A stretch of DNA of 57,870 nucleotides from Candidatus Margulisiibacteriota bacterium (GTDB taxonomy: Bacteria > Margulisbacteria > WOR-1 > O2-12-FULL-45-9 > XYB2-FULL-48-7). A program made the position numbers and the translations under genes. This document shows, piece by piece, positions 34,455 through 50,368 of the stretch; within the stretch, counting starts at the first letter, position 1, and each line of letters begins with the position of its first letter. The DNA is taken from assembly GCA_041658645.1 (NCBI GenBank), contig JBAZZV010000010.1, forward strand, positions 1 to 57,870, in the 5' to 3' direction. The notes under the pieces were generated by a model. It worked only from the letters and a program-made list of their open reading frames with translations. It was not told the DNA's origin and did not search any database.

Positions 34455-34468
34455 AATAAGCCTCCTAA

Positions 34469-35161: not shown

Positions 35162-35297
35162 CTGCCTCGCTTTTTAGGGAAGTGCTGCCGCCTTCCTCTA
35201 CTATCTTCCCTACCACATTAATAATGTTCCCGATCCCCTCAAAGACCTGATTTATTCCAAGACTGGAAATAAGGGTTTTTTCGTCTTCGGCCGTCAT
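35123..35297 (-). CDS. possible small protein sharing the FEG.G...VVGK motif with the Hsp20/GvpH-like N-terminus
   Basis: Hand-translated MTAEDEKTLISSLGINQVFEGIGNIINVVGKIVEEGGSTSLKSE.... Its ATG overlaps the upstream stop (ATGA). Confidence 0.3.
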
Positions 35298-35617: not shown

Positions 35618-35634
35618 TTTAAGATACCTCCTTT

Positions 35635-35931
35635 CTAGCCCATTACCTTGGCTTCCAATTTTTCTAACCGTTTTTGAAGCGTTTTATTTTCTTCTTCCAG
35701 CTTTTTAGCCTGCGAAGAAATAAAAGAATCCTGCTGCCACCAGTCAATCCCAATCTCCATCGCCTTTTCCACCGAACACACCAGAAGTCTAATCTTAATA
35801 TTTAACAGGTCTACATCCGCGAGCGAGATCTTAATATCGCCGGCAATGACAATTCCCTTGTCCAGAACCCTTTCTAAGATATCCGCTAAATTCGTAGCAT
35901 TGGTCGCGTGGGCCATTCCTTGCATAACCAT
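35635..35931 (-). CDS. gvpJ: GvpA-family gas vesicle protein (GvpJ/GvpM-like)
   Basis: LADILERVLDKGIVIAGDIKISLADVDLLNIKIRLLV...GIDWW is the GvpA/J/M core. AAGGAGGG RBS. Confidence 0.8.
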   Translation of the reverse strand: MVMQGMAHATNATNLADILERVLDKGIVIAGDIKISLADVDLLNIKIRLLVCSVEKAMEIGIDWWQQDSFISSQAKKLEEENKTLQKRLEKLEAKVMG

Positions 35932-35950
35932 AATTTTCTTCCCTCCTTTT

Positions 35951-36211
35951 TTACGCTATTTTACTAGCTTTAATTACCAGTTCTGCGGTTTTCTTGCGTA
36001 AATTAATTATATTTCTACAAATCTCGCAGACTGAACTGCCTTGATCATATTCCAGGCATTTAAGCAGAGGAGTGAGTTCATTTATTAAAAGCTGGGCTCT
36101 ATTGCCTTTTACTTTAGGATCACGGGTCTCATTTAAACTCCGGGTTATTTCTCTTGTTTTGCGTTCCTTTTGTTGGAAAATTCCGCAGTTTACTTTTTCT
36201 TCTTCAGACAT
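35951..36211 (-). CDS. hypothetical protein (gvp cluster)
   Basis: 86 aa with a CxxC. Good RBS. Confidence 0.4.
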   Translation of the reverse strand: MSEEEKVNCGIFQQKERKTREITRSLNETRDPKVKGNRAQLLINELTPLLKCLEYDQGSSVCEICRNIINLRKKTAELVIKASKIA

Positions 36212-36221
36212 GTTCCCCCCT

Positions 36222-36578
36222 TCACATTAAATCTCCTAACGGCCCGAGATTCAGATTCAGCTCTTCGTCTTTTACATTAAATATTTCTTTTAACTCTGCC
36301 ATTTTCTTATCAAGCTTTATAAAAGTTTCGCCCATTTTCTCGATTTGTTCATCAGTTAAAGAGCCACTTTCAACTCTTCGCGCCGCTTGTTTTTCCATGA
36401 GTTTCCTGATTAGCTCTATCAGGGTTAAGACCAGCTTTGCCAATCCCTGTTCTACCTGTTTAGGATCAATATTAATTCTCTCCGCGGATTTAAGCTTCAC
36501 CGCGGAATCCTGCATCTCTGCCGGATCCTCCATTACTATCGTTAAAGAACTGGATCCATGCCCTGCACTATCCGGCAT
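36222..36578 (-). CDS. gvpK: gas vesicle protein GvpK
   Basis: INIDPKQVEQGLAKLVLTLIELIRKLMEKQAARRVESGSLTDEQIEKMG...LNLNLGPLGDLM matches the GvpK pattern. Confidence 0.75.
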   Translation of the reverse strand: MPDSAGHGSSSLTIVMEDPAEMQDSAVKLKSAERINIDPKQVEQGLAKLVLTLIELIRKLMEKQAARRVESGSLTDEQIEKMGETFIKLDKKMAELKEIFNVKDEELNLNLGPLGDLM

Positions 36579-36579
36579 T

Positions 36580-36783
36580 TTAAGTTGACTCCTTCATGCG
36601 CGCAACTTCGTACTTTTCCATGGTTTCAACCGAAGAGACCAGAACCCGCAAGCCGATGTAAACCAGATCAATATCGGCCACCGAAATAACAATATCTCCC
36701 GCCACAACCGCTCCTTTGTGCAAGACCCGATCCAGCGCTTCAACCAGAGTTACTTCTTTCTTCTCATAATAAGGCCCGGTCAT
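36580..36783 (-). CDS. small GvpA-family protein (GvpS/GvpM-like)
   Basis: LVEALDRVLHKGAVVAGDIVISVADIDLVYIGLRVLVSSVETMEKY. Confidence 0.75.
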   Translation of the reverse strand: MTGPYYEKKEVTLVEALDRVLHKGAVVAGDIVISVADIDLVYIGLRVLVSSVETMEKYEVARMKEST

Positions 36784-37562
36784 TTCCCCTCCAAACTAGC
36801 GAAGCTGTAAGCTGGCCATGGGCCGGATATCTCCAGTTCCAGGCCGGAAGCCGCATAGGTTTTCTGTAAATCCGACACTCTAGATTTAAACTCGGAGACT
36901 TTCTTTTTCGGAATTAAATAGGCGCCGTTTAAAATCGTCTCGGCCTCCTTTATAGTCAGCTCTTTGGGCTGTAGTTTATTCAAACAATTTTTATCCGCGA
37001 ACTTCACCAGTTCTTCGTGAATAGCGGCGGCATCTTCGTTCATCTTTTTTTCGCTCTCTTCAAAAATCAAACTGGCTCTTTTCCTTTTTAAGAAATACGC
37101 CGCGCCTTCTGATTTATCTTTTATCGCCAAATCAATATCCTTGATATGCTGATTGCTGCGCGCAAGCTCTTCTTTTAATTTATTGGCATCACAATAAACT
37201 TTTACTCCCCATTCCTCTTTTCCATCAAGATTTAAAATAATCTCCAGGAAACCCTGGTAATTTTTCTCAAGCATAGCTTCAAGCGATTTGGCGGTTTTAA
37301 AGATGGTCCCGAATTTTATGGGAACAACTGCCGTCTTTTCTGCAAGGCGAGAAATTATATTATTATGATGCATAACTTTTTCTTCCAGCCATTTAGGATC
37401 TTTCTCAACCTTAAGTTTAAATGCCTCTTCTTGAAAATCATCAATAGTTGTTTTTTCAACCACCGCCGCTATATCTTTGTAAGAGATAGTCTGACTCCCC
37501 TCTCCCGCAAAATTTGATTGCGAAGCAGCGATTAGGCAAAATAAACAAAGTCCTTGCTCCAT
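36780..37562 (-). CDS. gvpL: GvpL/GvpF family gas vesicle protein (paralog 1)
   Basis: MEQGLCLFCLIA... N-terminus and the GPWPAYSF signature. Confidence 0.8.
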   Translation of the reverse strand: MEQGLCLFCLIAASQSNFAGEGSQTISYKDIAAVVEKTTIDDFQEEAFKLKVEKDPKWLEEKVMHHNNIISRLAEKTAVVPIKFGTIFKTAKSLEAMLEKNYQGFLEIILNLDGKEEWGVKVYCDANKLKEELARSNQHIKDIDLAIKDKSEGAAYFLKRKRASLIFEESEKKMNEDAAAIHEELVKFADKNCLNKLQPKELTIKEAETILNGAYLIPKKKVSEFKSRVSDLQKTYAASGLELEISGPWPAYSFASLEGK

Positions 37563-37583
37563 ATTTTTTATTCCTTATTGGTT

Positions 37584-37838
37584 TTATTCATGCCGATCGT
37601 AAGAAGTAATAGTTAAATCTTTATCCAAAACCACATCGTATTGATGTTTTTCCATTATCTTCTTGCCGATGGCTTTCATAGATTCACTTTCTTCCACCAC
37701 CTCAACCCTGGCCTCCCAACCGGTATCCACAACAGAGGTCTTGACCACAAAGGCATTGGGTTTCTTAAGCGTCTTCTTAAAGAAATTTTCAACCGTTTCG
37801 GTCGCGGCTACAACATCACCTTTTGTTTTTTCAGCCAT
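37584..37838 (-). CDS. gvpO: probable gas vesicle protein GvpO
   Basis: VVKTSVVDTGWEARVEVVEESESM...YDVVLDKDLTITSYDRHE fits the GvpO pattern. AGGAGGG RBS before MAEKTKG. Confidence 0.55.
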   Translation of the reverse strand: MAEKTKGDVVAATETVENFFKKTLKKPNAFVVKTSVVDTGWEARVEVVEESESMKAIGKKIMEKHQYDVVLDKDLTITSYDRHE

Positions 37839-37854
37839 TTTAATTCCCTCCTTT

Positions 37855-38049
37855 TTATTTTCCGCCTTTGGCGGAAACTTTGGTTCCACATTTTGGACAA
37901 TACTTATAGTCGTAGCTAAACCTCCAGTGATGCCCGCATTCAGAGCATCTTATGGTAAGCGCCTCTCCGCAATTAGGACAATTATCATGGTCGCTATAAG
38001 TTGTGGTTTTACATTTTGGACATTTAAAGGGACCGGTTCCTTCCCCCAT
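37855..38049 (-). CDS. double zinc-ribbon protein
   Basis: CPKC...CPNC and CSEC...CPKC pairs. GGAGGAGG RBS. Confidence 0.5.
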   Translation of the reverse strand: MGEGTGPFKCPKCKTTTYSDHDNCPNCGEALTIRCSECGHHWRFSYDYKYCPKCGTKVSAKGGK

Positions 38050-38220
38050 TCTTATTCACCTCCTCCAGCACTTTCTTTCTTCCCTTCAATCTTTTCCTTT
38101 TCGGCTTCCAACTTTTCGGTTAACTTTCTAGTTTTCCCAACAAATTTCCCTACTATTTCTGCAGGCGCCAAGGAAGGCTAACAAGACAATATCATGGAGG
38201 CTCAAAGGCAAAAATGTCAT

Positions 38221-38466
38221 TTATTCTTCTTCTCCTTCTTTGTATTTTCGAATGGCTTCCAAGCGCTCCATTATTTTCGTTTCTCTCTTTTGATACTCAT
38301 CTTCGGTAATCTCCCCCATATCTAAAAGGGTTTGGGCTTCTAATAACGCCTGTTGAGGCTTGGCTTCATCGGAAAGCTCCTCATCGACTTGGGTCTTTAT
38401 CGCCTCAAAGATCCCCATAAATCCCTGGACCGGCAGCATTAATATATCATCGATTATAAATGCCAT
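38221..38466 (-). CDS. gvpG: gas vesicle protein GvpG
   Basis: MAFIIDDILMLPVQGFMGIFEAIKTQVDEELSDE...LLDMGEITEDEYQKRETKIMERLEAIR. Confidence 0.7.
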   Translation of the reverse strand: MAFIIDDILMLPVQGFMGIFEAIKTQVDEELSDEAKPQQALLEAQTLLDMGEITEDEYQKRETKIMERLEAIRKYKEGEEE

Positions 38467-38566
38467 ATCAAAAATCCCAATGTCAAATGGATGTCCGCCT
38501 TAGGCGGATTATTTAAATAATTTATTCCATCATTTGTCATTTTTAATTGGTCATTGGCCATTAATT

Positions 38567-39301
38567 TCAAAACATCAGCTCCACATTGGCGAAATTATAG
38601 GGCGCCAGCGGCCCGACATATTTCAAATTTATTCGATCCTTATGCTGTTCGTGGATTTTATTCACTAATTCGTCAAAATCTTTTTCTTTCTCCTTCTCCA
38701 CCAAAAAGGCCGCATTCATTAGCCAGGGATCGCCATAGGTAGAATTCAACTTATAATCAACCGCCAATTTCTTAAATTTTCCCAGCAAGTCTTCAACTTC
38801 CTTTTCTTTTTTTATCTTTAAAAGTTCCTCAACTCTTCTTCCAATCTCCATTAAATTTGGATGGGGGGAACTTTTTAATTTTTTTATCTCCGGCGTTTCA
38901 GCAATTTCGGCAAAGATCGGTTCCAGAGCCGTCCACATGACCCGCAAGCCCAGTTCTACTTTACCCTTCATATTTTTAATCATATCCTTCAAGGTTGCTT
39001 CAAAGCGTTTTAATCCCTTTTCTACTACTTCCGCTTCACTCTTCGCAACAGTGCAAAAGCGCACCGGAAGCGCGGTAAATTCTTGCATAGCTTCCTCAAC
39101 CACCAGTTCATGCGGCATCAAATTCTCCCGCAAGGCTTGATACCTCATCTTGGGCGAGCGACTTACGACTGCGCCCAGCCCATCAAAAGAAATGGCATAA
39201 ACCCTGTCACTCCGGCCTCCGATACCCGGAGTCTTAAACTCTTTTCCCTCTTTAGGGTTATCTATAATGCAATAGACATATATACCCTCTTCGCCTGTCA
39301 T
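38567..39301 (-). CDS. gvpF: GvpL/GvpF family protein (paralog 2)
   Basis: GIYVYCIID... and GPLAPYNF. Confidence 0.8.
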   Translation of the reverse strand: MTGEEGIYVYCIIDNPKEGKEFKTPGIGGRSDRVYAISFDGLGAVVSRSPKMRYQALRENLMPHELVVEEAMQEFTALPVRFCTVAKSEAEVVEKGLKRFEATLKDMIKNMKGKVELGLRVMWTALEPIFAEIAETPEIKKLKSSPHPNLMEIGRRVEELLKIKKEKEVEDLLGKFKKLAVDYKLNSTYGDPWLMNAAFLVEKEKEKDFDELVNKIHEQHKDRINLKYVGPLAPYNFANVELMF

Positions 39302-40407
39302 TTTTCCTTTGCCTCATCGGACAGCGCCGCTACCAGAGCGCCTTTGGCTACCGTGCGCAAAGGCTGGGATGCCATCCGCACTGATTTTATGGCTAAGGGA
39401 AATTTAGATCGCTCCAAAATGCTTTTAAACCTGTCTGAAAATCCGGGAGGCAAAGAAGTTCCCCCTGATAAAATAATAGAAAGGGGTTTATCAAGGCGCG
39501 GCATCTTTTTGTTCTTTTCAAATTCCCTTTTTATGTTTTCAATAACATATTCAATGAGATGACTGTAATAGATAGATAAGGCGCTTTCTATTCTGGATAG
39601 GCCGGTTTCCTTGGATAGATCAAGACTGGTTTCTTTAATAGCAGAGATGCGGCTCGCAGTTTCATCGACACTCAAAGCTACCTGCTGATCAATCCAGTCC
39701 CCGGCCTTGGTAACGCTAAAGGCAACTATGGGAACGGAAAGGTAGGAAAGGCACATATTGACCATGCCGCCGCCAAAAGAAAGTCCGATCCCAGAAAAAT
39801 CTTCATCGCCTAACTCCGCCAGAACTATGGCGTGCGCCTCATTGATTACTTTAGGGGTATAGCCAAGCCTGGCGATAAAACCATAGAGAATTTTCTCATG
39901 ATAGATAACGTTGAAATCAGCATCAATTGGCTCACCGGGGACGGAATAGTAAACGATCTCGCCATCGCGGCGGGGTTTTCCTAAAACGCTTTTAATTAAA
40001 AGTTCTACCATGGGCAAAGCTTCTTTTTCCGAAGGGCTGACAATCCCTTTCTGGAGCGGTCGGCGGGTATCTTTGTGGAAAATATTGGCAAATTCCAGAG
40101 CTTCATCTCCCACTACGTACAGCTTGTTATCTTTGATAATATACTTAACCCGGGAATTATCCAGCATATTGCGGGTAAAATCCGTGTGTTCTACCTCAAA
40201 GAAGGCATCTCGCTGAGATCTAAAGATGATGGAATCGCCGTTTTTCTCCGCGAATTTTATAAAACAGGTCCCAATGTCTATCCCCTTACCATATTCTGCC
40301 TGCCTGCCTGCCCGTCCGGCAGGCACGGCTTTCTCGATTACCTTAACCATCTTTGCAACCTTCTTTTTAACTTTTCCGCCTTTGGCGAACTTTTTCCCCT
40401 TTACCAT
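39298..40407 (-). CDS. actin/Hsp70-fold ATPase (Hsp70-NBD/MreB/EutJ-like) with a Lys-rich N-terminal tail
   Basis: Phosphate-1 GKGIDIGTCFIKFA, connect/phosphate-2 VINEAHAIVLAELGDEDFSGIGLSFGGGMVNMCL, and adenosine motif SIILSGGTSLPPGFSDRF. The GGTSLPP and INE..A motifs look more Hsp70/MreB-like than ParM-like. Strong RBS. Confidence 0.65.
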   Translation of the reverse strand: MVKGKKFAKGGKVKKKVAKMVKVIEKAVPAGRAGRQAEYGKGIDIGTCFIKFAEKNGDSIIFRSQRDAFFEVEHTDFTRNMLDNSRVKYIIKDNKLYVVGDEALEFANIFHKDTRRPLQKGIVSPSEKEALPMVELLIKSVLGKPRRDGEIVYYSVPGEPIDADFNVIYHEKILYGFIARLGYTPKVINEAHAIVLAELGDEDFSGIGLSFGGGMVNMCLSYLSVPIVAFSVTKAGDWIDQQVALSVDETASRISAIKETSLDLSKETGLSRIESALSIYYSHLIEYVIENIKREFEKNKKMPRLDKPLSIILSGGTSLPPGFSDRFKSILERSKFPLAIKSVRMASQPLRTVAKGALVAALSDEAKEK

Positions 40408-40410
40408 AAC

Positions 40411-40932
40411 TTACCTCCCTTTTGCCTTTTTAAACGCTTCGACCGCGCCTCCGAGGTTAAACTTGTCTTTCTCATCAGTTGTAACCTTTTCAAGATTACT
40501 TTCCATCTTTACCTCCTCTAATTCTATCGGCGGAATGAAACTGGTTTTAATTTGAATTCTTTTCTCCTCATCTTCTGTCTCTCTTAGCCTTCTGACACCG
40601 GGACGATAAGACCCGCTTCTGACAATCCTCTCTTTAACCGGCAAGGCCCCTATTTCACGGGCAACTTCTTTGGCAACTCCTTTAGCGACTTCCTCCAGCA
40701 TTGACTTATCTACGATAAACTTCCAACCCTCACCCGATAAAAGCTTTGCTCCTTTGGGAGCCAGAGCAAAATATTTGCCCTCATTTACCCTCAAATATCC
40801 TTGTCGAATAAGGGATTTACAAACCAGATCCGCATAACCAGGAGATATTCCTAATCTTTGGGTAATCAAACTTCTCCCGGCCTTACCCTTTTCTCCGACA
40901 ACCTTTAATATCTCTTGTTCAGTTGTTCCCAT
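40411..40932 (-). CDS. winged-helix (MarR/PadR-like) DNA-binding protein with an acidic C-terminal extension
   Basis: EQEILKVVGEKGKAGRSLITQRLGISPGYADLVCKSLIRQGYLRVNEGKYFALAPKG. GGTGAGG RBS before MGTTEQ. Confidence 0.5.
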   Translation of the reverse strand: MGTTEQEILKVVGEKGKAGRSLITQRLGISPGYADLVCKSLIRQGYLRVNEGKYFALAPKGAKLLSGEGWKFIVDKSMLEEVAKGVAKEVAREIGALPVKERIVRSGSYRPGVRRLRETEDEEKRIQIKTSFIPPIELEEVKMESNLEKVTTDEKDKFNLGGAVEAFKKAKGR

Positions 40933-40973
40933 CCTCACCCACCATTCGCTTCGCTCATAAGCCCGCCACCCCA

Positions 40974-41969
40974 CTAGGTGGGGAGAGTAAGCTTTTTAAC
41001 CGAAAATAAATCACAACCGTTGCTCGTATATTCATATAAAAGATCAAAAGCCTTTTTTAACTCCACAAATTGCTTGGCGGCCTCCGGATTATCTGGATTT
41101 TTGTCGGGGTGAAGCTTTCCGGCCATGGCACGGTAGGCCCGTTTAACCTCTTCCGGAGGGGGATCTTCTACTATTCCCAAAACTGCCTTGGCATAGAAAA
41201 TTTCATCCGGAGTTAATTTCTTTATCTCAATAGTGGCAAAACTGTAAGGGGGCAGAGGGCCTACGCACTTAAAGTTTATTTTACCCTCATACTTTCTATC
41301 TAATTCCGCTAGTTCCTGTTCAAAGACCTCCTTTTTATCTTTATCAAGCAAAAAAGCTGTATTGAAAATCATCCTGTCATTTAAAGTAGCATGCTTACAA
41401 AAAGCGCCAGCTTGTCCGCCAGAGGCGGACAAAGCCGTGATTATCTCCTCGGCAATTCTATCTTTTTTTCTATCCAGGAAATCTTTAACCATTTTTCCAA
41501 GGATTATGCCACCCTGAATTCTTTCGCCGGGAGGCTTTTGAGTAACCTCGTCTTTGAAGCATTGAATCTCTGCTATTTCTCCTATCTCTTTTAAGACGCC
41601 ATTCATCTCATTCCAAATGCCCACCAAATCCAATTCGATTTTCCCGCTTAAGGTTTCCATAATTTCTTTAAATAGTTTATAGCCCTTTTTCATTATTCTT
41701 TGAGTTTCGTTATCTCCGTCTATAAAAGTTCCAAATTTGAGAGGAACAACTGAATAATTCTGCATGACTTTTTCAATGATAGATTGATGTCTAAGCAGGT
41801 AATTTACTAGCTCATCTTTGCGCAGAGTCGCGAAAGGAATTGGTTTACTATCACTTACTACCAAAGAAATATCTTCATAAGGGATAGTAAAAATCTCCCC
41901 ACCGATCCCCTGGATATCAAAGGTCTGCAGCTTATTGTCCGGGATGACACAATAGAGGTATTTCATCAA
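40974..41969 (-). CDS. GvpL/GvpF family protein (paralog 3) fused to a C-terminal J-domain
   Basis: [11 protein letters not shown]... and VGPLPPYSF (GvpF), followed by EEVKRAYRAMAGKLHPDKNPDNPEAAKQFVELKKAFDLL, a DnaJ J-domain with the HPD tripeptide. Confidence 0.75.
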   Translation of the reverse strand: MMKYLYCVIPDNKLQTFDIQGIGGEIFTIPYEDISLVVSDSKPIPFATLRKDELVNYLLRHQSIIEKVMQNYSVVPLKFGTFIDGDNETQRIMKKGYKLFKEIMETLSGKIELDLVGIWNEMNGVLKEIGEIAEIQCFKDEVTQKPPGERIQGGIILGKMVKDFLDRKKDRIAEEIITALSASGGQAGAFCKHATLNDRMIFNTAFLLDKDKKEVFEQELAELDRKYEGKINFKCVGPLPPYSFATIEIKKLTPDEIFYAKAVLGIVEDPPPEEVKRAYRAMAGKLHPDKNPDNPEAAKQFVELKKAFDLLYEYTSNGCDLFSVKKLTLPT

Positions 41970-44143
41970 CTCACCCCCGCTTCTCCTCTTCTCTTATAAA
42001 GAGAGGGGGATGGGGGATGAGTTTTTATTTCCTTGATCGCCTGACTAAAATAGGGCCTATCAATTTCAAACTTCGAATAATCCAGTTTCCTGCCCTTAGC
42101 TTTATCGATAAAATCTCTAATCGCTAACATAGATGCTCGCCGGCAAATAGCTTCGATGTCGGCGCCGGAAAGCTCCCCGGTCTTTTCAGCCAATTCGGAA
42201 AAATCAACCTCTTTAGCTAAAGGCTTATCTTTGGCATGGATTTTAAAAATCTCGACTCTGGTCTTCTTATCCGGCAAAGGCAGTTCAAACTTCAGATCAA
42301 ACCGGCCTGAACGGAGCAAGGCGGAATCGACCATATCAAAACGATTGGTAGCGGCTAAAACAACCACTCCTTTAAGCTCTTCAATGCCATCCAGTTCAGT
42401 TAAAAACTGACTGATAACGCGCTGGGCAACTTGAGAATCTCCTCCCCCGGCTCCGCGAACAGGGACCACGCTTTCGATTTCATCAAAAAACAAAATAGTC
42501 GGCGCCGCTTGTTTGGCTTTTTTAAAGATCTCGCGGACAGCCCGCTCGGAATCACCCACATATTTAGACATAAGTTCAGGGCCTTTAACTGAAATAAAAT
42601 TCACCCCGCTCTCTTTGGCTAAGGCCTTGGCCAAAAGAGTTTTCCCGGTGCCGGGAGCGCCATAAAGCAAAATCCCTTTAGAGGGCTTAGTCGCGGCTTT
42701 TTCAAACATTTGAGGATATTCCAGCGGCCACTGAATGGTTTCTTTTAGGTTTTCCTTGATCTCATCCAGCCCGCCGATATCCTCCCAACCCACCTCCGGG
42801 ACCTCCACAAAGACTTCACGAATAGCCGAGGGCTCCACCTCTTTCATCGCCTCCATAAAATTATCCATGGTAACTTCAAGTTTCATAATTTTTTCATAAG
42901 GGATCTCCGCTACGGCAAAATCCAATTGAGGAAATAATATACGCAAGGAGGCCATAGCCGCTTCGCGGCAGAGCGCCTCAAGGTCGGCGCCCACAAAACC
43001 ATGGGTGATAGCAGCTAATTTTTCCGAATTAACATCTTTGGCTAGCGGCATGCCCCGGGTATTGATGTTTAAAATTTCCAATCTGCCGTTTTTATCCGGG
43101 ATAGGAATGCTTATTTCCCGGTCAAATCTGCCGGGACGACGCAGAGCCGGGTCAATGACATTGGGAATATTAGTCGCGGCGATCACAATTAGCTGACCCC
43201 GGGACGCCAGTCCATCCATCAGCGCTAATAGTTGCGCCACCACTCTTTTTTCAACCTGTTTTTCGCCGCCCATTTCTTCTCTTTTGGGAGCGATGGAATC
43301 AATTTCATCAATAAATAGTATCGCCGGAGCATGAGCCGCGGCATCTTCAAAGACTTCGCGTAGTCTGCCTTCTGATTCACCATAAAATTTCCCCATGATC
43401 TCCGGCCCGGAAATGCTGGTAAAATAAGCGTCAGTTTCACTGGCCACGGCGCGAGCAATCAGGGTTTTGCCGCAGCCGGGAGGCCCGTAAAGAAATACCC
43501 CTTTGGGAGCTTCAATTCCCAATCTCTCAAAAATTTGCGGATACTTAAGAGGGAGTTCGATCATTTCCCTGATTTTCCGTATTTCTTTATGTAAGCCGCC
43601 AACATCCTCATAAGTTACCCGATGCGGCCCAGCTTTAGACGCTCCTTCCGTTTTTAATTTAATTTGGGTGGTAGGAGCAATAACTACAATTCCCTCCGGA
43701 ACTGCTTCTATTACTTTAAACTCCTGATATTTGGTCCCAAAAAGGAGTGCTCTGACTCGATTTCCCGCTATAAGAGGAATGCCTTCAAGTATCCGCCCCA
43801 TATAGCGGGTATCCTGGGAAGCCATAAGGGTTAAGGGTTGAACGGTAATGCGGGTGGCAGGCTGACTTTTAGCCGGACTTACTTTTACTTTTTCATCCAG
43901 GCCCACTCCGGCATTATCTCTGATAATTCCGTCAATTTGTATGAGCCCCTTTCCCCGATCTTCGGCAAAACAGGGCATTACTTTTGCGGGAGTTGATTTC
44001 TTACCCTTTATCTCGATAATTTCTCCAACCTCTACCCCGATATCTTTCATATCATCAGGATCGATGCGGGCAATGGCCCGACCCACATCTTTAGAGAGGG
44101 ATTCGGAGACCTTTAGGGTTAATGTTTCTTTTTTCTTTGCCAT
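41966..44143 (-). CDS. Cdc48/VAT/p97-like double AAA+ ATPase
   Basis: Cdc48-N-like domain plus two AAA modules (GPPGCGKT...DEID and GAPGTGKT...DEIE, with SRH regions). The track ORF extends to 44200. [12 protein letters not shown] at 44143 is the likely start. Confidence 0.85.
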
Positions 44144-44154
44144 AATTCTTAAAA

Positions 44155-44214
44155 TGTAGGGACAACCCTTGTGGTTGTCCGTTTTTTCGGACAGGGACAA
44201 GCCCTGTCCCTACA
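44155..44214. repeat. paired hairpin element (A+B) filling the hsp20-cdc48 intergenic gap
   Basis: tgtagGGACAAcccttgtggTTGTCCg tttttt cGGACAGGGacaagCCCTGTCCctaca. The outer tgtagggaca/tgtccctaca arms are also complementary. Confidence 0.6.
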
Positions 44215-44216
44215 AT

Positions 44217-44750
44217 TCATTTTTGTATCTTTATCTCCAAAACCCCATTCTTATAGGTTGACGCCATTGTTTCAGCTTTAACTTTTGAAGGGAGCAGAAC
44301 TTCTTTGTGATACTTCCTGTCGCCTTTTGCGGCAGAAATATCCAGGATATCTTCTTTGAGATCAAGCTTGATATCAGTTTCTTCAATCCCCGGCATCTCC
44401 ACCACCAGCAAGACGTGATCCTTCTCATCGAAAATATCGACCTCCGGTTCCCTTTCTTCTTCGACCACGGTTTTGCCTTCAGGGGTACGATGGATGTTGC
44501 CGAAGGAAGAGACTTTGGGCCCGCCTTTGGCCATGGTATTGATCGTGAAACCATACATCATTTTACCTTTCTTGCCGCCTAAACCCTCAATATCTATTGC
44601 CCCCGTTTTTTTAAGCTCTTCGCCCTTTTCCGCTAGTTTTCCTACAACATCAAGCAAACTTCCCAATCCCTCAAATATCCCACCCAGGTTAAATCCTGCT
44701 TCGACTTTTGGTTCCTCTTTTTTACCTTTTTTCTCTTTTGCCATTTTCAC
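44217..44750 (-). CDS. Hsp20/alpha-crystallin family protein (GvpH-like)
   Basis: ACD: DIFDEKDHVLLVVEMPGIEETDIKLDLKEDILDISA...GVLEIKI. GTG start overlapping the gvpF stop. Confidence 0.8.
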   Translation of the reverse strand: MKMAKEKKGKKEEPKVEAGFNLGGIFEGLGSLLDVVGKLAEKGEELKKTGAIDIEGLGGKKGKMMYGFTINTMAKGGPKVSSFGNIHRTPEGKTVVEEEREPEVDIFDEKDHVLLVVEMPGIEETDIKLDLKEDILDISAAKGDRKYHKEVLLPSKVKAETMASTYKNGVLEIKIQK

Positions 44751-45496
44751 TCATCCTCCTTTATTACAACATTCACAAAATTATACGGCGGCAGGGGACC
44801 AACATATTTAAACTGCGCCCGTCCGCCTTTGGCGGAGTATTTTTTATCCAGCTCATCAACCAAAGTATCAAATTCCATTTCGCGAGCTTTATCGACTAAA
44901 AAAGCGGCGTTGAGAAACATATTTTCAGTCAAAAGTTTTCCTAAGGCGATATTATAGGCGCTGTGGCGCAAATGAGTGAGGATTTCTTCCCCCTCCTCTT
45001 CTTTTTTCTTTTCAAGCAACCTCTCAACCAACTTTCCAGCTTCAATTTGTTCCTCCAAGCCCGAAGCCCCTTTCTTCTTTTTTGCGCTAACTTCAGGGCT
45101 GTTGGCAATTTCTTTATAGATTACTTTCATGTCTTTCCAGAATGCCTTGAGCCCCAGCTCAACTTTACCGTCCATATCCCGCAAAAGACTTTTAAACTCA
45201 CTATGTCTTTTCCCTAGAAGATTTCTTATCTCGTCGGCGCTTTCGGCAATACTGCAAAACCGAACCGGAAGCACGGTAAATTCCTGCATTACTTTTTCGA
45301 TTGCCTTTTCATGGGCAATTAAATTATCCCGGCTCAAAGTATATTTTGTCATGGGGGTATTGCTGACCACGGCCGAAAGACCTTCGCAAGAAATAGTTGT
45401 CACCTCATCCCCTCGCCCGCCAATACCAATGGAACCAAAGTTACAAGGGAAGTTCGTTTCAATAATGCAGTAAATGTATTTTCCCTCTTTATCCAA
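44747..45496 (-). CDS. gvpF: GvpL/GvpF family protein (paralog 4)
   Basis: GKYIYCIIE... and VGPLPPYNF. Confidence 0.8.
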   Translation of the reverse strand: MDKEGKYIYCIIETNFPCNFGSIGIGGRGDEVTTISCEGLSAVVSNTPMTKYTLSRDNLIAHEKAIEKVMQEFTVLPVRFCSIAESADEIRNLLGKRHSEFKSLLRDMDGKVELGLKAFWKDMKVIYKEIANSPEVSAKKKKGASGLEEQIEAGKLVERLLEKKKEEEGEEILTHLRHSAYNIALGKLLTENMFLNAAFLVDKAREMEFDTLVDELDKKYSAKGGRAQFKYVGPLPPYNFVNVVIKEDE

Positions 45497-45866
45497 CAGT
45501 TACACTCCCTTTTCCATGACAGGCCAGACAGGGCAGGCCGCTTAAAGCTGATCCTCTGCCCCTACATTGCTTACATGTTTTAATTGGCTCTTTAATTGGA
45601 ACTACTCCTTTCCCATGACAGACGACACAGGAGAAAAAGCTCCTGGGGTTTTTCATTCCCCGCCCCCCGCAATAAGCACAAACTACAACCGGCGGTTGTA
45701 CGGTGATGGTTCCTTTTCCGCCGCACGCCGGACATTTAGCTTTTTGAGTAGTACCAACTAAGCCTTTCCCGCCGCAAAAAGCGCAGATAAAATCGCTTTT
45801 ATGTAAAATCTGCCCTTTCCGTTTATCTAAACCTTTTTTCCAATCATAAGCAATCCACTCTTCCAT
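45489..45866 (-). CDS. DnaJ-type CR zinc-finger protein (6x CxxCxGxG)
   Basis: CAFCGGKG, CPACGGKG, CAYCGGRG, CVVCHGKG, CKQCRGRG, CLACHGKG. Confidence 0.65.
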   Translation of the reverse strand: MEEWIAYDWKKGLDKRKGQILHKSDFICAFCGGKGLVGTTQKAKCPACGGKGTITVQPPVVVCAYCGGRGMKNPRSFFSCVVCHGKGVVPIKEPIKTCKQCRGRGSALSGLPCLACHGKGSVTVG

Positions 45867-45867
45867 A

Positions 45868-46221
45868 CTAATATTGTAGGGCCATTCTTTGCCATTTAGG
45901 GACGCCTTGAGGGGCGCCTGTGGCCGGCAGACTTTTGCGCCTAGCCCTGCCGCCGGCGGTAAGTTGGCCCGCTTCGGCCGCCTGTAGTTTCCGGCTTTCC
46001 TTTTCTATGTCAGCTAAGCGCCGCTGAATTATTGTTTTGCGGCGTTCAACGATTGAACTTTCTTTCTCGAGTCGTTCTCTCTCTTTTCCCAGCATATATA
46101 AATCCAGGAAAGTCGAGTCTTGATTGCCTCGAGGAATAGAACGCCTGCCCGTAGAATGCAGCGTCCGCAGGCCATGAAGACCGGCGATGTTCACGGCCCC
46201 GTTTTTGCGCCGCTCTTTCAT
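45868..46221 (-). CDS. hypothetical basic/coiled-coil protein (gvp cluster)
   Basis: 117 aa, overlapping both neighbours. No family recognised. Confidence 0.4.
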   Translation of the reverse strand: MKERRKNGAVNIAGLHGLRTLHSTGRRSIPRGNQDSTFLDLYMLGKERERLEKESSIVERRKTIIQRRLADIEKESRKLQAAEAGQLTAGGRARRKSLPATGAPQGVPKWQRMALQY

Positions 46222-47150
46222 ATTTTCACCCCCTCGTAATGCTTATTAATTAACTCATTAACAAGTTTCCTGACTTTAGCCTGATTGGTTCTGCTACCCA
46301 CGCGGCTGGTCTCGGACGCCAGGATGTCAGTGCAAATTTCCCGGAAGATCCCTTTATCGGCATCGTGAGTTCCATTAAGCACCTTTAAACTCTTAGCAAT
46401 CATGATGCAGCCGCGAATGGTGGGAGCAAACTCGCATTTTCCGGATCCCCGCAGAGCTCGCACAATCCCTACAATTTCCCCGGCTTTATCCTTAGATATT
46501 TTTGCTTTAGCGGCAGTAATATCTATCTCTGTTTCTTCATCATAATGATCCAGATCCATAGTAATCATGCGGTCGCGCAGGGCATCCTGACTGCGGTGTA
46601 CCCCGGCGTATTCTTCAGGGTTGCTGGTAAAGATGGCGGTAAACTCCGGGTCGACCCGAAGATAGGACTCTCCTCCTCCTCGACCAACCGGCAAATCCAT
46701 TATCTTTTCCTGCAAAATAGAAAGCAAGATATTATTAGCTTCCGGACGGGAGCGGGTAAACTCATCATATATTAATGTAAAGCCGTATTTACAGGCCACC
46801 GTTAAGCGGTTATCCACCCAGCGCTTAACCATATCTTCTTCCACTTTCAAAACACGCGAGATAAAGCGATCCACCACTTTTCGGATCCGGTAGCCGTATT
46901 CACCACCCACTAAATCAGAGGTTTTAAACTCTTCATCCCCATGAATAAGCACCACGGGCCGGCCGATTTTGCTGGCAATGTGCATCGCCAGGGTGGTTTT
47001 ACCCGTCCCCGCACCCCCGCGAAAATGGATAGGAAACCCCGCTTTTATATAAACCATAGACCGATCAGCCAATTCTTTCACCTGTTTTGTCTCCACAAAA
47101 TCGGGCATCGACTTTGGGTCCAAAACGGTAGTCATTTCATCGATGGACAT
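46218..47150 (-). CDS. gvpN: gas vesicle protein GvpN (MoxR/CbbQ-like AAA+)
   Basis: Walker A FRGGAGTGKTTLAMHIA, Walker B LIYDEFTR, 310 aa. AAAAGGAGG RBS. Confidence 0.85.
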   Translation of the reverse strand: MSIDEMTTVLDPKSMPDFVETKQVKELADRSMVYIKAGFPIHFRGGAGTGKTTLAMHIASKIGRPVVLIHGDEEFKTSDLVGGEYGYRIRKVVDRFISRVLKVEEDMVKRWVDNRLTVACKYGFTLIYDEFTRSRPEANNILLSILQEKIMDLPVGRGGGESYLRVDPEFTAIFTSNPEEYAGVHRSQDALRDRMITMDLDHYDEETEIDITAAKAKISKDKAGEIVGIVRALRGSGKCEFAPTIRGCIMIAKSLKVLNGTHDADKGIFREICTDILASETSRVGSRTNQAKVRKLVNELINKHYEGVKI

Positions 47151-47170
47151 TTTTTTACCTCCTTTTTTTT

Positions 47171-47230
47171 CGGACAGGGATAAACCCTGTCCCTACATGA
47201 TAATGTAGGGACAACCCTTGTGGTTGTCCG
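47171..47230. repeat. paired hairpin element (B'+A') upstream of gvpN
   Basis: cGGACAGGGataaaCCCTGTCCctaca tgataa tgtagGGACAAcccttgtggTTGTCCg, the same family as 44155-44214 in the opposite order. Confidence 0.6.
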
Positions 47231-47236
47231 TAAAAT

Positions 47237-47557
47237 CTATTTCCCTACCAACCCAGTCCCCTGACACTCAAGACACGGAAGATCGCCTTTGCCTATATTG
47301 CGTCCGGTGCCCTTACAGGCAGAACACTTTTTATCACTGCGCTTACCTGGAATTACTCCCTTGCCCCGGCAGGCAATGCAGGTATTGCGGGTTTGGGGTT
47401 GGACCCCGCTTCCCCCGCAATATGCACAGTCTACATAGGGTTCTTCAACCGTAACCTGCCCGGCGTCACCGCAAACCTGGCAGTTAGCCAACTCCGAGAG
47501 AAGGTCAAAAGGATCTTTGCCCGTGCCTTTACAAAAGGCACATTTTATTTTCGGCAT
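47237..47557 (-). CDS. DnaJ-type CR zinc-finger protein (6x CxxCxGxG)
   Basis: CAFCKGTG, CQVCGDAG, CAYCGGSG, CIACRGKG, CSACKGTG, CLECQGTG. Confidence 0.65.
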   Translation of the reverse strand: MPKIKCAFCKGTGKDPFDLLSELANCQVCGDAGQVTVEEPYVDCAYCGGSGVQPQTRNTCIACRGKGVIPGKRSDKKCSACKGTGRNIGKGDLPCLECQGTGLVGK

Positions 47558-47572
47558 AACCTTGCCCTCCTT

Positions 47573-48229
47573 TTAGCTCTTTCTCGGTCTTCCTCTTTTA
47601 CCTTTTTTCTTTGGCTTAGCGGATTCTTCTACTGTCTTAACTTCTATGCCCGCGGCAATGGGTTTGCCTTTTTCAATTTTTATAGCAACCCCATGCCTAG
47701 CTTTTTCCATCTGCTCCGCCATTTTCTGCCAGGCACCGCTTGCCGCTGTCATGTCATCCTTAACCTCAGCCAAATAACTACTTACTTCTTTATCTATTTC
47801 CATTATTCTCTTCTGAATTCCAGATAACATGGCCTTGAAATCTTTCAACCTATTCGTTTCTCCAGTCTTCAATGCTTCTTCAAGAGCTTCAGCCATTTCC
47901 TTATGCTCCTTCTGAAGTTCTTTAAGCATTCTCTTTACATTGCTGACTAAATCTTCAGCAAATTTGGCTAGATCCTTTGCCTGTGCGGTAGCCATCTTCC
48001 TGTGGTCGCCAGCAAAACCCTTTAATAGGCCACTGGTTGTATCCACCAAATCACCCACAAAGGAACTTAAATCTTTCCTTTGCTCCGCACCCATTTTCAC
48101 CCGATCCCGGTTAAAGCCCTTAAGGGTATCATGGGTATCTGAAAAAATATTCCCTAAAACACTTATTCTGGCATCATAATCGCCTACAATTTTATCCGCT
48201 AAACTTTTCATCTCTTGTGCAATTGACAT
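47573..48229 (-). CDS. GvpC-like repeat protein (33-residue repeats) with a basic AT-hook-like C-terminus
   Basis: LKGFNRDRVKMGAEQRKDLSSFVGDLV and LKGFAGDHRKMATAQAKDLAKFAEDLV lie 33 residues apart. C-terminal KKKGKRGRPRKS. Confidence 0.5.
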   Translation of the reverse strand: MSIAQEMKSLADKIVGDYDARISVLGNIFSDTHDTLKGFNRDRVKMGAEQRKDLSSFVGDLVDTTSGLLKGFAGDHRKMATAQAKDLAKFAEDLVSNVKRMLKELQKEHKEMAEALEEALKTGETNRLKDFKAMLSGIQKRIMEIDKEVSSYLAEVKDDMTAASGAWQKMAEQMEKARHGVAIKIEKGKPIAAGIEVKTVEESAKPKKKGKRGRPRKS

Positions 48230-48284
48230 TTCCCTTACCTCCTCTTATTTGACATAAACTTTCGAATCCCTGTCTGCCGGCAGG

Positions 48285-49040
48285 CTATTTTGTGGCAGTC
48301 ATCACCCCCTTTCCTCCTACGCCCTTCCACCTTCGCTCTTCGAGCTCCGGCGGACAAGCCGGGCTTCGGAGGACACGCTTTTTCGCCATGGTTAAAGATA
48401 AACTGCGCCAGGACCCGGCTGCGGCTATCCTTTCTTCCTGAAAGCCCTTGAGCATGGCTTTAAAGTCTCTTATTCTTATGGTTTCGCCTTTACTTAAAAG
48501 CCCCCTTATTCCTTTCGCCAACTCCTCATTTTCTTTACGATATTCGGCAACTTGGGCCTGGAAACCCTTAAGCATTTTTGTTACTTGATCCTGCCGCGCC
48601 AGCTGCTGCTTTTTAATTTCAGAGAACTTGGCCTTAAACTCGTCCAGCCGAATTTGCTCACCGGCGACTAATTGTTTATTGAAATCCGCAAATCCTTCCT
48701 TTAATGTCCCGGCAACCGCCTTTTGCTCCGCCAGATAATCTTCCAAAAGTTTCTTTACCTCTTTTTCCCGATTGCTTTGCTCTTCCAAAATCCCCCGCAT
48801 CATTTGATCAAAATCCTTATGCCGCAGGGAGTCGGTTTTGGCCAATTTCTCACGGAGTTCTTTGCTTAACGATTCTCTTTCTTCCCGGGTTTCAAGCAGG
48901 GCTTTTTGAAAACCATCCAGCATTTGGTGGGTATCAGAAAAAATGCATTCTATCGAAGCGATGCGGTCTTCATAAGAAGAAATAACATCACAAGCAAGGA
49001 ACTGCATCTTTTCCGCGACATTTGATACGCCGTCAACCAT
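48285..49040 (-). CDS. GvpC-like repeat protein (paralog)
   Basis: Repeated MLDGFQ / TLKEGF / MLKGFQ and R.(D/E)FKA units. Shares the N-terminal IFSDTH..L.GF with the 47573 protein. Confidence 0.5.
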   Translation of the reverse strand: MVDGVSNVAEKMQFLACDVISSYEDRIASIECIFSDTHQMLDGFQKALLETREERESLSKELREKLAKTDSLRHKDFDQMMRGILEEQSNREKEVKKLLEDYLAEQKAVAGTLKEGFADFNKQLVAGEQIRLDEFKAKFSEIKKQQLARQDQVTKMLKGFQAQVAEYRKENEELAKGIRGLLSKGETIRIRDFKAMLKGFQEERIAAAGSWRSLSLTMAKKRVLRSPACPPELEERRWKGVGGKGVMTATK

Positions 49041-49134
49041 TTCTACCTCCGATTATTTTAAGAAAGATTCCTGGTGCAGAATGCCTTATTCCGGGATTCC
49101 TCAGCAAGAATCGTTCCCATAAGTTTCAAGAAAC

Positions 49135-49344
49135 TTACGCTGCTGCGGTTGCCGTGAGGCCTACTGCTTCAGCATATTTCAAGAATGTCTCAACACCGGC
49201 GACCACAACTCTGGCTTCAATCGCCAGAAGCTCGATCCCGACTAAGGATATCCTTACCCACGCGTCAATCACGATGCCCTTATCGAGAATGCGATCGATG
49301 ACTTCTACCAAGCTGGAACTTCCAATTGCTTTTTCAACTGCCAT
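49135..49344 (-). CDS. gvpA: gas vesicle structural protein GvpA
   Basis: [64 protein letters not shown] is near-identical to canonical GvpA. AAAGGAGGTGA RBS. Confidence 0.95.
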
Positions 49345-49375
49345 GTTTTTTCACCTCCTTTTGTTTATAATATAA

Positions 49376-49405
49376 TGTAGGGCAAGGGCTTATCCCTTGC
49401 CGAAC
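49376..49405. repeat. single hairpin element of the same family upstream of gvpA
   Basis: tgtagGGCAAGGGcttatCCCTTGCCgaac. On the minus strand the hairpin is followed by CTACATTATATTATAAA, ~40 nt before the gvpA RBS. Confidence 0.5.
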
Positions 49406-49642
49406 TCCCTTAATCAATAATCATCATAAATTTGGGATTCTGTTTCTTTTATGGCTGTTTTTAACAGGCCAAGAATGCCTAAAAGTTTCCGCAACCACTT
49501 AAACATTCTCATTTTCCAATTTCCGGGTTGATTTTATAGTCATAAATAAAGAAAAAACCAAGGCTGTATAAAGGCATACCTTAGCTTTTCCGAAAAATTA
49601 AGTTTGGTGAAGCTCGCGGAAATCCGCGAATTTTTATTTTCC

Positions 49643-49694
<52 letters not shown>

Positions 49695-49951
49695 ACTATT
49701 TAATCTATCACTCATCATTATGATGAGATCACTCATCGGTAATTGTGTGTTCATTTTTTTACTTCTCTTTCCTTCCGAGCTTCCACCTCCGCACTCTAAG
49801 CGGACAGGTCGAAGAGCCAGGCAGTAATTTACATTACTACTAAGGAAGTATATGGCATTTAGCCCATTTGTCAAGTTGTTTTTGACCTATGGGCTATTCT
49901 TCTCTTATACCCAATTGGCTTAGACTGTAAGCCTGGAAGGAGGAATAATAA

Positions 49952-50368
49952 ATGGCAATTTTAAACGGCCTTGGCAAAAAGATCAAAATGCTAAGAAACG
50001 CAAGGGGCTTGACCCAGGAAGATTTAGATGGGCTTACTGGGCTACATTATACATTTATTGCTAAAATTGAAGCCGGGAAGAAACAACCTAGTTTAAAAAG
50101 CCTGGCAAAAATAGCTAAAGCGTTAGGCATCTCCCTTTCGCGGCTTTTTGAAGAAAAACAAAAGGTTCCTATCAAACCCCCGCTAAATAAATTAATAAAG
50201 ATTCTTGAAGATAGGGATCCAAAAGAAGTAAATCTTATTATCGAATTGGCAGAAACTATTTTTTCTAAAGCAGACAAGCTATTAAAACAAAAAGGGTCAC
50301 GACAAAAGTCGGGGGGGGGGGGGGGGGGGGGGGGGGGGATCAGGTTAAGGTATAATGGAAAGGAATGA
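49952..50368 (+). CDS. XRE-family (Cro/C1-type) HTH transcriptional regulator. The 3' end runs through the poly-G tract
   Basis: LRNARGLTQEDLDGLTGLHYTFIAKIEAGKKQPSLKSLAKIAKALGISL. The C-terminal SGGGGGGGGG is encoded by the G-tract, so the true C-terminus is uncertain. GGAGGA RBS. Confidence 0.55.
   Translation: MAILNGLGKKIKMLRNARGLTQEDLDGLTGLHYTFIAKIEAGKKQPSLKSLAKIAKALGISLSRLFEEKQKVPIKPPLNKLIKILEDRDPKEVNLIIELAETIFSKADKLLKQKGSRQKSGGGGGGGGGIRLRYNGKE
50311..50338. repeat. ~28-nt poly-G homopolymer at the island/core boundary
   Basis: Read directly from the sequence. Immediately precedes the rlmD start. Confidence 0.9.

Follow-up and report, generated by a model that had tools for sequence, protein, structure and literature searches.

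Gene Content of the Gas-Vesicle Locus

The window considered here, i.e., the whole stretch of 57,870 nucleotides that was analysed (positions 1 to 57,870 of contig JBAZZV010000010.1, assembly GCA_041658645.1, from a Candidatus Margulisiibacteriota bacterium), carries a gas-vesicle (gvp) operon in which genes for chaperone-, unfoldase- and actin-like proteins are embedded among those for gas-vesicle proteins. By Pfam, the canonical set consists of GvpA, a GvpN-type AAA_5 ATPase, four GvpL/GvpF paralogues, GvpG, a weakly matching GvpO and GvpK, and beyond GvpA two more proteins with a Gas_vesicle domain are encoded in the operon. A first-pass annotation of the same DNA had placed five elements amid these canonical genes, namely an Hsp20-like protein, a GvpF paralogue with a C-terminal J-domain, two proteins made of DnaJ-type CR zinc-finger repeats, an actin/Hsp70-fold ATPase and a Cdc48-like AAA+ protein, and all of them have been recovered as minus-strand open reading frames (ORFs) with unchanged coordinates. 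In the direction of transcription, the locus reads as follows:

~49.4 kb to ~34.4 kb, minus strand: gas-vesicle operon, ~15 kb (ORFs and Pfam)
49135-49344, minus strand: gvpA (Pfam)
47237-47557, minus strand: CR-only zinc-finger protein, 106 aa (Pfam DnaJ_CXXCXGXG)
46218-47150, minus strand: GvpN-type AAA+ protein (MoxR/AAA_5), a canonical gvp gene amid the module (Pfam AAA_5, 63.8 bits)
45868-46221, minus strand: conserved 117-aa protein, next after GvpN (homologues in many related gvp loci)
45489-45866, minus strand: CR-only zinc-finger protein, 125 aa (Pfam DnaJ_CXXCXGXG)
44747-45496, minus strand: GvpF/L paralogue without J-domain (Pfam GvpL_GvpF, 208 bits)
44217-44750, minus strand: small heat-shock protein, Hsp20/alpha-crystallin (Pfam HSP20, NCBIfam NF041800)
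41966-44143, minus strand: Cdc48/VAT-type double-ring AAA+ protein (TIGR01243)
40974-41969, minus strand: GvpF-J, a GvpF paralogue with C-terminal J-domain (Pfam GvpL_GvpF and DnaJ)
~41034-41183, minus strand: J-domain of GvpF-J, HPD codons at 41103-41111 (Pfam DnaJ, motif)
40411-40932, minus strand: winged-helix partner of volactin, 173 aa (NCBI start, alignment, AlphaFold2 (AF2) model)
39298-40407, minus strand: volactin-family actin-like ATPase, 369 aa (Pfam Volactin PF25216)

From GvpN through to the third GvpF, successive genes meet at junctions of -8 to +16 bp. With such tight packing they are almost certainly co-transcribed, several of them probably being translationally coupled as well.

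A GvpF Paralogue Fused to a J-Domain

GvpF-J is matched by the GvpL_GvpF family over residues 3-245 (169.9 bits, Pfam) and by the DnaJ J-domain PF00226 over residues 263-312 with 50.8 bits, against a Pfam gathering cut-off (GA) of 27.8. The HPD tripeptide at residues 287-289 has been found invariant across 14 aligned sequences of 33-72% identity, and the early call of a C-terminal HPD J-domain is thereby borne out. Nearly all of the best 120 database matches to GvpF-J, down to 33% identity, combine PF06386 with PF00226. RefSeq names the fusion only 'GvpL/GvpF family gas vesicle protein', and the NCBIfam J-domain matches include DnaJ, TopJ, DjlA and ActJ. The fusion also occurs in a cultured organism, Octadecabacter arcticus 238, in which a simpler cluster with Hsp20 and GvpF-J is located on plasmid pOA238_160; the HPD motif is present there, and the J-domain scores 28.0 bits (GA 27.8). 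On the basis of these domains, GvpF-J is classified as a class-C J-domain protein and as a predicted Hsp70 co-chaperone.

A genomic scan with GvpF-J, limited to one genome per species, has yielded 327 relatives, of which the best 80 loci have been analysed by searching their six-frame ORFs with the window proteins; the flanks extended to at most 10 kb, so that all co-occurrence counts are to be read as lower bounds. These best 80 of the 327 loci all match via the J-domain and derive from at least 80 species-level genomes, whose labels include Nitrospirota, Nitrospinota, Planctomycetota, Desulfobacterota, Chloroflexota, Actinomycetota, Omnitrophota, Verrucomicrobiota, NC10, Latescibacterota, Aerophobetes and Saganbacteria. 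Every J-bearing GvpF ORF in the related loci (80/80) is closest to the GvpF-J paralogue of the window, whereas a J-domain is carried by 0 of the 166 ORFs whose closest match is one of the other three GvpF paralogues. As the J-bearing ORFs group with one paralogue only, the fusion represents a single old orthologous lineage.

Recurrence of the Gene Set and Cluster-Borne Hsp70s

Twenty-two of the related loci are fully visible, i.e., they reach 8 kb or more beyond the fusion gene in either direction. Co-occurrence across gvp clusters had been put forward as a check by the first-pass annotation, and the set has indeed been found to recur:

Hsp20: 22/22 fully visible GvpF-J loci
Cdc48-like AAA+ protein: 18/22
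ArsA-like ATPase: 18/22
CR proteins (at least 3 motifs): 15/22
Hsp70: 9/22
Volactin: 1/22

All four fully visible loci without Cdc48 carry an Hsp70. The co-location of the five elements in the window is not due to chance, because the same combination recurs in the gvp clusters of many unrelated lineages. GvpN of the window shares a median identity of 72% with its orthologues in 49 related loci. One- or two-domain ArsA/Get3-like ATPases are often encoded next to Hsp20 and Cdc48 (L003, L005, L006, L008, L087-L089 and others), whereas the cluster of the window, unlike 18 of the 22 relatives, has no ArsA gene.

About 14 related clusters have an Hsp70 of 586-625 aa at the cluster edge. Four of these proteins have been tested and pass the NCBIfam model NF001413 DnaK, over nearly the full length of the model, with 700-758 bits while staying below the stricter TIGR02350 cut-off, which fits diverged DnaK paralogues. 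One cluster Hsp70 in the volactin-bearing relatives reaches 746 bits with PF00012; volactin and Hsp70 occur together in loci L014, L041 and L161 and are adjacent in the latter two. Near the cluster-edge Hsp70, proteins of ~365 aa with a Gas_vesicle (GvpA-like) domain have been noticed (L003 19440-20537, L005 18517-19620), the one in L003 having faint GRAM/Vps36-like (PH-like) signatures too. In L161, a 298-aa ORF (12-908) upstream of the volactin-Hsp70 pair has the Vps36-like signature alone.

The Cdc48-Type Unfoldase, Hsp20 and the CR Proteins

The gene directly upstream of GvpF-J encodes a protein with CDC48_N (PF02359, 92.6 bits), CDC48_2 (PF02933, 28.4 bits), two AAA (PF00004) and two AAA_lid_3 domains, which scores 908 bits with TIGR01243 CDC48 (NCBIfam cut-off 803) and has archaeal VAT as its closest solved relative (5g4f, 709 bits). 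Walker A, Walker B and arginine fingers are intact in both rings and the pore loops are aromatic (KFYGE, KYVGD), in full agreement with the initial description as a Cdc48/VAT-like double ring. The longest ORF opens at TTG 44200; the likely start is ATG 44143. The Cdc48 stop overlaps the GvpF-J start by 4 bp, the same order is found in 39 of 52 assessable loci, and the gvp-linked Cdc48 orthologues form a tight clade with a median identity of 67% across 50 loci. A C-terminal HbYX-type motif, which mediates docking to the 20S proteasome and is typical of archaeal Cdc48/VAT, has been sought at the C-terminus and is not present there, the protein ending in ...RRGEAGVS. This would bear on the proposed partnership of Cdc48 and not on its family membership.

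The small heat-shock protein (sHsp) has been confirmed as Hsp20-like by PF00011 (33.5 bits, GA 20.8) and by NF041800, the archaeal Hsp20 family of NCBIfam (145.5 bits, cut-off 140). A relationship with GvpH has been considered and rejected for the window protein, in which PF05455 gives no match at E≤5; a faint precomputed GvpH match appears in one Hsp20 orthologue only (L089).

The CR proteins of 125 and 106 aa match PF00684 DnaJ_CXXCXGXG with 44.2 and 36.9 bits, respectively (GA 32.7), and each contains 12 cysteines in six CxxC repeats. The initial description of both as six-repeat proteins thus holds, with the reservation that all six repeats follow the strict CxxCxGxG pattern in the 125-aa protein and five in the 106-aa protein, the remaining one being degenerate (CQVCGDAG). 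Orthologues of the 106-aa protein are present in 37 related loci (median identity 51%), and six repeats are the modal form among CR ORFs of the relatives (39/64). DnaJ carries four CxxCxGxG repeats, whereas the window proteins have six and presumably three zinc centres. They resemble Bacillus anti-TRAP, whose profiles match them below threshold, and plant BSD2, a CR-only 'DnaJ-like zinc finger' Rubisco assembly chaperone, in being small and composed of CxxCxGxG repeats only; anti-TRAP and BSD2 serve as dedicated binders or assembly factors.

A Volactin-Family ATPase with a Winged-Helix Partner

The 369-aa ATPase had been taken as the Hsp70-like nucleotide-binding component of the module. Its placement in the actin/Hsp70 superfamily stands, and the nucleotide motifs DxGT (DIGT), GGG (FGGG) and SGGT are in place, but the family is Volactin (PF25216), matched with 305 bits (GA 35) over profile positions 3-321 of 321, and the HSP70 profile PF00012 gives no Pfam match at E≤0.01. 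Four of the five calls of the first-pass annotation (Hsp20, J-domain, CR and Cdc48) therefore pass curated cut-offs, and the Hsp70-like assignment does not. The best sequence match to any solved structure, an Hsp70-related chain, has an E-value of 0.22, and a weak NCBIfam match to MamK has been obtained. Among 1,764 database matches, the best 120 are all at least 66% identical, with ~70% identity across phyla, and an alignment of 26 sequences has a mean column identity of 77%. The protein is accordingly assigned to the actin/Hsp70/sugar-kinase superfamily and specifically to the volactin family, as a full-length actin homologue. The idea that it is part of an Hsp70 has been rejected on four grounds, namely its profile match, its length, the co-occurrence counts and the presence of true Hsp70s beside it in some clusters.

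The gene between GvpF-J and volactin encodes 173 aa from ATG 40932 in an ORF that is open from GTG 40974. Its product has a winged helix at residues 1-67, followed by a helix, a disordered Arg-rich linker with indels and a conserved C-terminal segment (IKTSFIPPIELE...KFDLGGAVEALKK). The winged helix-turn-helix (wHTH) is confidently predicted in the AF2 model, with a predicted local confidence (pLDDT) of 80-90, and HTH_24 matches 13 of 15 partner homologues; in structure comparisons, the N-terminal domain is similar to MarR-type wHTH proteins, to the centromere-binding AspA (TMt 0.65-0.73) and to Sso10a. Such a layout is as expected of an adaptor whose two ends would bind cargo and a filament, respectively.

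Four volactin homologues on long contigs all lie within gvp clusters, namely in L087 (Scalindua rubra), L090 (Saganbacteria), and L088 and L089, two JGI metagenome contigs, the L089 protein being also listed from Nitrospirae metagenome-assembled genomes (MAGs). Their common order is Hsp20-(ArsA)-Cdc48-GvpF-J-(GvpF)-partner-volactin-GvpF-GvpG, and the partner stop overlaps the volactin start. In addition, 80 metagenome loci have been gathered with the volactin alignment, 70 of which contain a gvp gene. Volactin directly follows the partner in 65 of 69 and directly precedes a GvpF in 43 of 53, and Cdc48 is upstream in 24 of 29. Five volactin loci have no gvp match; they include the 6.3-kb L161, one of the two longest, which encodes an Hsp70 and a GRAM/Vps36-like ORF as is typical of the distal end of this type of gvp cluster. 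Gene order and co-occurrence thus identify the partner and volactin as a separate two-gene cassette, found nearly always inside gvp clusters.

The cassette sits mid-operon with junctions of -1, +3 and -4 bp. A centromere of the ParMRC type, with iterated repeats, has been sought in the 38-45 kb region, in which only two-copy chance repeats were detected; such a partition site by the cassette has been rejected, as there are neither iterated repeats nor intergenic space. The winged-helix domain of the partner also occurs in volactin-less gvp clusters, either as 3-4 tandem small ORFs (~70-130 aa) or fused to CR zinc-finger repeats in proteins of ~250 aa (examples at L003 5302-6057 and 9056-9855 and at L005 2191-2943 and 5572-6109; similar ones in L008, L019, L025, L031-L033 and L040), which suggests that it may be a gvp-specific targeting domain.

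Further Features of the Gas-Vesicle Island

The region of ~32000-50000 has a GC content of 0.41-0.47 (~0.43) compared with 0.52-0.59 (~0.56) in its flanks, and this step suggests a horizontal acquisition of the gvp operon. tRNA genes, sought as an integration site at the island borders, are present nowhere in the window. A gene similar to tRNA(U5)-methyltransferases and an EPSP synthase gene are located in the high-coordinate flank.

Directly after gvpA, two coiled-coil proteins of 218 and 251 aa are encoded (47573-48229 and 48285-49040), which have in common a recurring R-x-x-D-F-K-A-M-L-type motif recognised by eye. They belong to no curated family, have homologues in many related clusters and may be functional analogues of the shell-strengthening GvpC. 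Conserved proteins without a curated family are further encoded at 34469-35161 (230 aa), 35951-36211 (86 aa) and 45868-46221 (117 aa); homologues of the 230-aa and 117-aa proteins recur across many related gvp clusters and those of the 86-aa protein in a smaller subset, and in eight related loci the 230-aa protein is encoded directly downstream of GvpF-J. Lenient Pfam and NCBIfam scans of the interleaved ORFs of 117, 86, 107 and 230 aa have given no credible family. A 64-aa double-zinc-ribbon (DZR) ORF has been called in the 331-bp gap after GvpG and before GvpO (~37900-38200; L001 12271-12465), and small DZR ORFs likewise follow GvpG in L005, L006 and L087.

Divergent to gvpA, an XRE/HTH_3 regulator gene (49952-50368, plus strand) is located between two long homopolymer tracts. 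The first tract (49659-49691), read on the gvp strand as 33 C followed by (CA)8, lies ~310 bp upstream of gvpA, and the regulator ORF has the second (50311-50338, 28 nt) at its 3' end. L001, an independent and otherwise identical assembly, has C6-T-C10 as its first tract, and its contig stops within the second. The tracts reflect either slipped-strand hypervariability, with possible phase variation, or homopolymer assembly error; the first tract also gives rise to an artefactual poly-proline ORF at 49581-49874.

Proposed Roles and Alternative Explanations

We consider it probable that the window represents a widespread class of gvp cluster equipped with two accessory sets, one for proteostasis and one forming a cytoskeletal cassette, whose functions are deduced from the genes. 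From the domain identities, the integrity of the motifs, the packing of the operon and the linkage across phyla, all of which have been directly observed, we infer the following steps. The GvpF domain of the fusion would capture clients of the GvpA family, and the HPD J-domain would load them onto a true Hsp70 and trigger ATP hydrolysis, upon which Hsp70 would clamp the client. The Hsp70 partner would be the housekeeping DnaK in this organism and, in many relatives, the full-length DnaK paralogue at the cluster edge. Hsp20 and the two CR-only proteins would act as ATP-independent holdases for aggregation-prone proteins of the GvpA, GvpJ and GvpM type. The Cdc48/VAT-type motor, translationally coupled to GvpF-J, would thread and release misassembled or aggregated shell protein and thereby take the role that ClpB has within the sHsp-Hsp70-ClpB triad. 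Volactin and its winged-helix adaptor, finally, would most probably position, space or segregate gas vesicles along a filament, as MamK/MamJ or ParM/ParR do with their cargo. A gas-vesicle-specific folding and quality-control function had been suggested at the outset, and for the chaperone set, which is embedded in the operon, the linkage to gvp genes across at least 80 genomes favours a proteostasis role specific to gas vesicles as the most plausible interpretation; the inclusion of the ATPase as an Hsp70 component has been dropped. More tentative, and in our view possible rather than probable, is the full proposal of a complete organelle kit, in which the GvpF chaperone is wired to Hsp70 and Cdc48 and combined with the first known actin cytoskeleton dedicated to gas vesicles, formed by volactin and its winged-helix adaptor as an analogue of MamK/MamJ for a protein-shelled organelle.

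Several observations weigh against these assignments. No Hsp70 gene is located within the window and the partner of the J-domain is assumed here, the presumed candidate being the housekeeping DnaK from another part of the genome. The tight coupling of Cdc48 and GvpF-J means that the fusion could work with Cdc48 outside the Hsp70 model. Most GvpF-J clusters lack volactin, which is therefore dispensable for this cluster type, and the AF2 model of volactin, calculated from 26 close homologues, is poor (pLDDT 57.6). The winged helix of its partner resembles DNA-binding proteins including AspA, and the cargo could thus be DNA instead of vesicles. Finally, the phylum labels stem from MAG records and may include binning errors.

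The original proposal regarded the ATPase as a stand-alone Hsp70-like nucleotide-binding domain that, together with the J-domain and the CR proteins, makes up an Hsp70 machine split over several chains. The common actin/Hsp70/sugar-kinase fold with its phosphate-1, phosphate-2 and adenosine motifs, the position of the ATPase gene one gene from GvpF-J and the adjoining volactin and Hsp70 genes in L041 and L161, a hint of a functional link, are consistent with it. This machine has nevertheless become highly improbable, and the claim has been abandoned: the ATPase has a full-length Volactin match of 305 bits and none to the HSP70 profile, the solved Hsp70-related chain is matched at only E=0.22, and volactin is missing from 21 of the 22 fully visible GvpF-J loci, travels with the winged-helix protein as a cassette of its own and is at times encoded beside a true Hsp70 in clusters of this type. 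Canonical stimulation by a J-domain requires the linker and the substrate-binding domain of Hsp70, both of which are absent from the 369-aa protein. Foldseek searches with the poor volactin model have placed MreB, MamK, EutJ and crenactin on top, at a TM-score of only ~0.3, and, with MreB, MamK and crenactin ahead, the DnaK nucleotide-binding domain at rank 29, a ranking that speaks against an Hsp70 part as far as such a model allows. Still less credible, and the least so of all explanations considered, is that the chaperone genes are general stress genes which reside in the island without a gas-vesicle-specific role. Components such as Hsp20, J-domains, CR domains and AAA+ unfoldases do belong to the general proteostasis repertoire, but here the J-domain and a GvpF domain share one polypeptide, the Cdc48 orthologues fall into a tight clade linked to gvp genes, and the gene order is kept across many phyla, a synteny that contradicts this explanation.

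A module for disassembly and recycling is unlikely, though not to the same degree, and is to be taken seriously. In it, GvpF-J, helped by Hsp70 and Hsp20, would direct Cdc48 to collapsed or unwanted vesicles, from which the motor would pull out GvpA, so that slow-growing anaerobes could lower their buoyancy or reuse shell protein. The Cdc48/VAT family comprises extraction and unfolding motors, both pore loops are aromatic here, as they are in VAT and as the D1 loop of p97 is not, no other gene is coupled to GvpF-J as tightly as Cdc48, and GvpN is already there as an assembly ATPase. Against recycling, the genes belong to a biosynthetic operon and are apparently co-translated with GvpA, GvpN and GvpF, and Cdc48 has neither a protease partner nor a C-terminal docking motif of the HbYX type. 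For the cassette, a DNA-related system on a mobile gvp island has been weighed, be it a partition pair resembling type II or a regulator of transcription that has an actin as its partner. The similarity of the MarR-type wHTH to AspA and Sso10a, the ParM/ParR pattern of an actin with a small DNA-binding adaptor and the foreign GC content of the island point in that direction; the mid-operon position, with junctions that leave no centromere space and without iterated repeats, the occurrence of the cassette inside gvp clusters on large chromosomal contigs of many lineages, and the winged-helix paralogues in volactin-less clusters and CR fusions, which fit a Gvp- or vesicle-binding module better, render it rather improbable. 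We retain the two accessory sets, for proteostasis and for a cytoskeleton, as our preferred reading.

Comparison with Known Systems

Part of this picture has been described before. GvpF is reported to bind monomeric GvpA and may chaperone it, GvpH prevents aggregation of GvpM, and GvpN is an AAA+ protein (PMC9501494), and the presence of Hsp20 and ArsA in bacterial gvp clusters was reported in 2010 by Castillo and Saier (PMC2963123). The organelle and several ideas of accessory chaperones are known already, with Hsp20 and ArsA documented. On the other hand, neither a J-domain nor a Cdc48, CR or actin component is among the gas-vesicle proteins listed in a 2022 review, and the model clusters of Halobacterium, cyanobacteria, B. 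megaterium and Serratia, unlike that of the window, are described without a J-fusion, Cdc48, CR proteins or actin (PMC9501494); the genome paper of Scalindua rubra speaks only of '11 gas vesicle synthesis proteins'. Full-text literature searches, with most subscription journals outside their coverage, have found no description of the GvpF-J fusion, Cdc48, CR proteins or the volactin cassette in gvp clusters. The early remark of being aware of no described locus of this kind thus needs to be narrowed: the set is common in databases and its Hsp20 published, whereas the wiring to Hsp70 through the fused J-domain, the Cdc48-type unfoldase, the CR proteins as holdases and the cassette with its actin seem to be new to the literature.

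With HscB (client IscU), auxilin (clathrin) and the Mycoplasma terminal-organelle protein TopJ, GvpF-J has in common the combination of an HPD J-domain with a dedicated client-binding or targeting domain, and, as in class C (type III) J-proteins in general, a G/F or CR region is not part of the same chain. It differs from them in that the targeting domain is GvpF/L, the J-domain is C-terminal, and the presumed client is the amyloid-like shell protein of a protein-bounded organelle. The whole set resembles the sHsp-Hsp70/DnaJ-ClpB disaggregation system in comprising an sHsp, a J-protein, an Hsp70 (in the clusters of relatives) and a double-ring AAA+ motor. The motor, however, is of the Cdc48/VAT type and not ClpB/Hsp104, without an M-domain for Hsp70 docking, and the J-protein is client-specific, the likeness being drawn from the parts. 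Like VAT, the gvp-linked Cdc48 has CDC48_N and CDC48_2 N-domains followed by the AAA rings D1 and D2, both of them active and with aromatic pore loops, but it has a bacterial host, lacks the HbYX-like proteasome-docking motif and belongs to a gvp-linked clade with ~67% identity across phyla.

In Haloferax, volactin forms dynamic filaments in vivo with ParM-like behaviour (PMC10869688). The ATPase of the window is, like volactin of Haloferax volcanii, a full-length member of the PF25216 family, but it has a bacterial host and its gene is embedded in a gvp operon; the described volactin has a role in archaeal cell shape. The cassette, with its upstream adaptor-like partner, follows the same principle of an actin and an adaptor as MamK/MamJ and ParM/ParR, although the partner is unrelated in sequence to MamJ or ParR.

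Significance

These findings touch on two questions of gas-vesicle biology, namely how the very hydrophobic and aggregation-prone GvpA stays soluble and enters the growing shell, and what GvpF/L proteins do. The fusion with its invariant HPD motif provides strong genetic evidence that GvpF would handle the client for Hsp70, and Octadecabacter arcticus 238, as a cultured organism with the fusion, offers a route to a direct test of this idea. Gas vesicles serve as genetically encoded reporters for ultrasound and magnetic resonance imaging (MRI), and their expression in foreign hosts is reported to cause proteotoxic stress (PMC12848028); a portable, cluster-matched chaperone and unfoldase set could raise yields. 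The volactin cassette would be the first functional context for bacterial volactins, and it suggests a possible active positioning of the vesicles within the cells of these bacteria.

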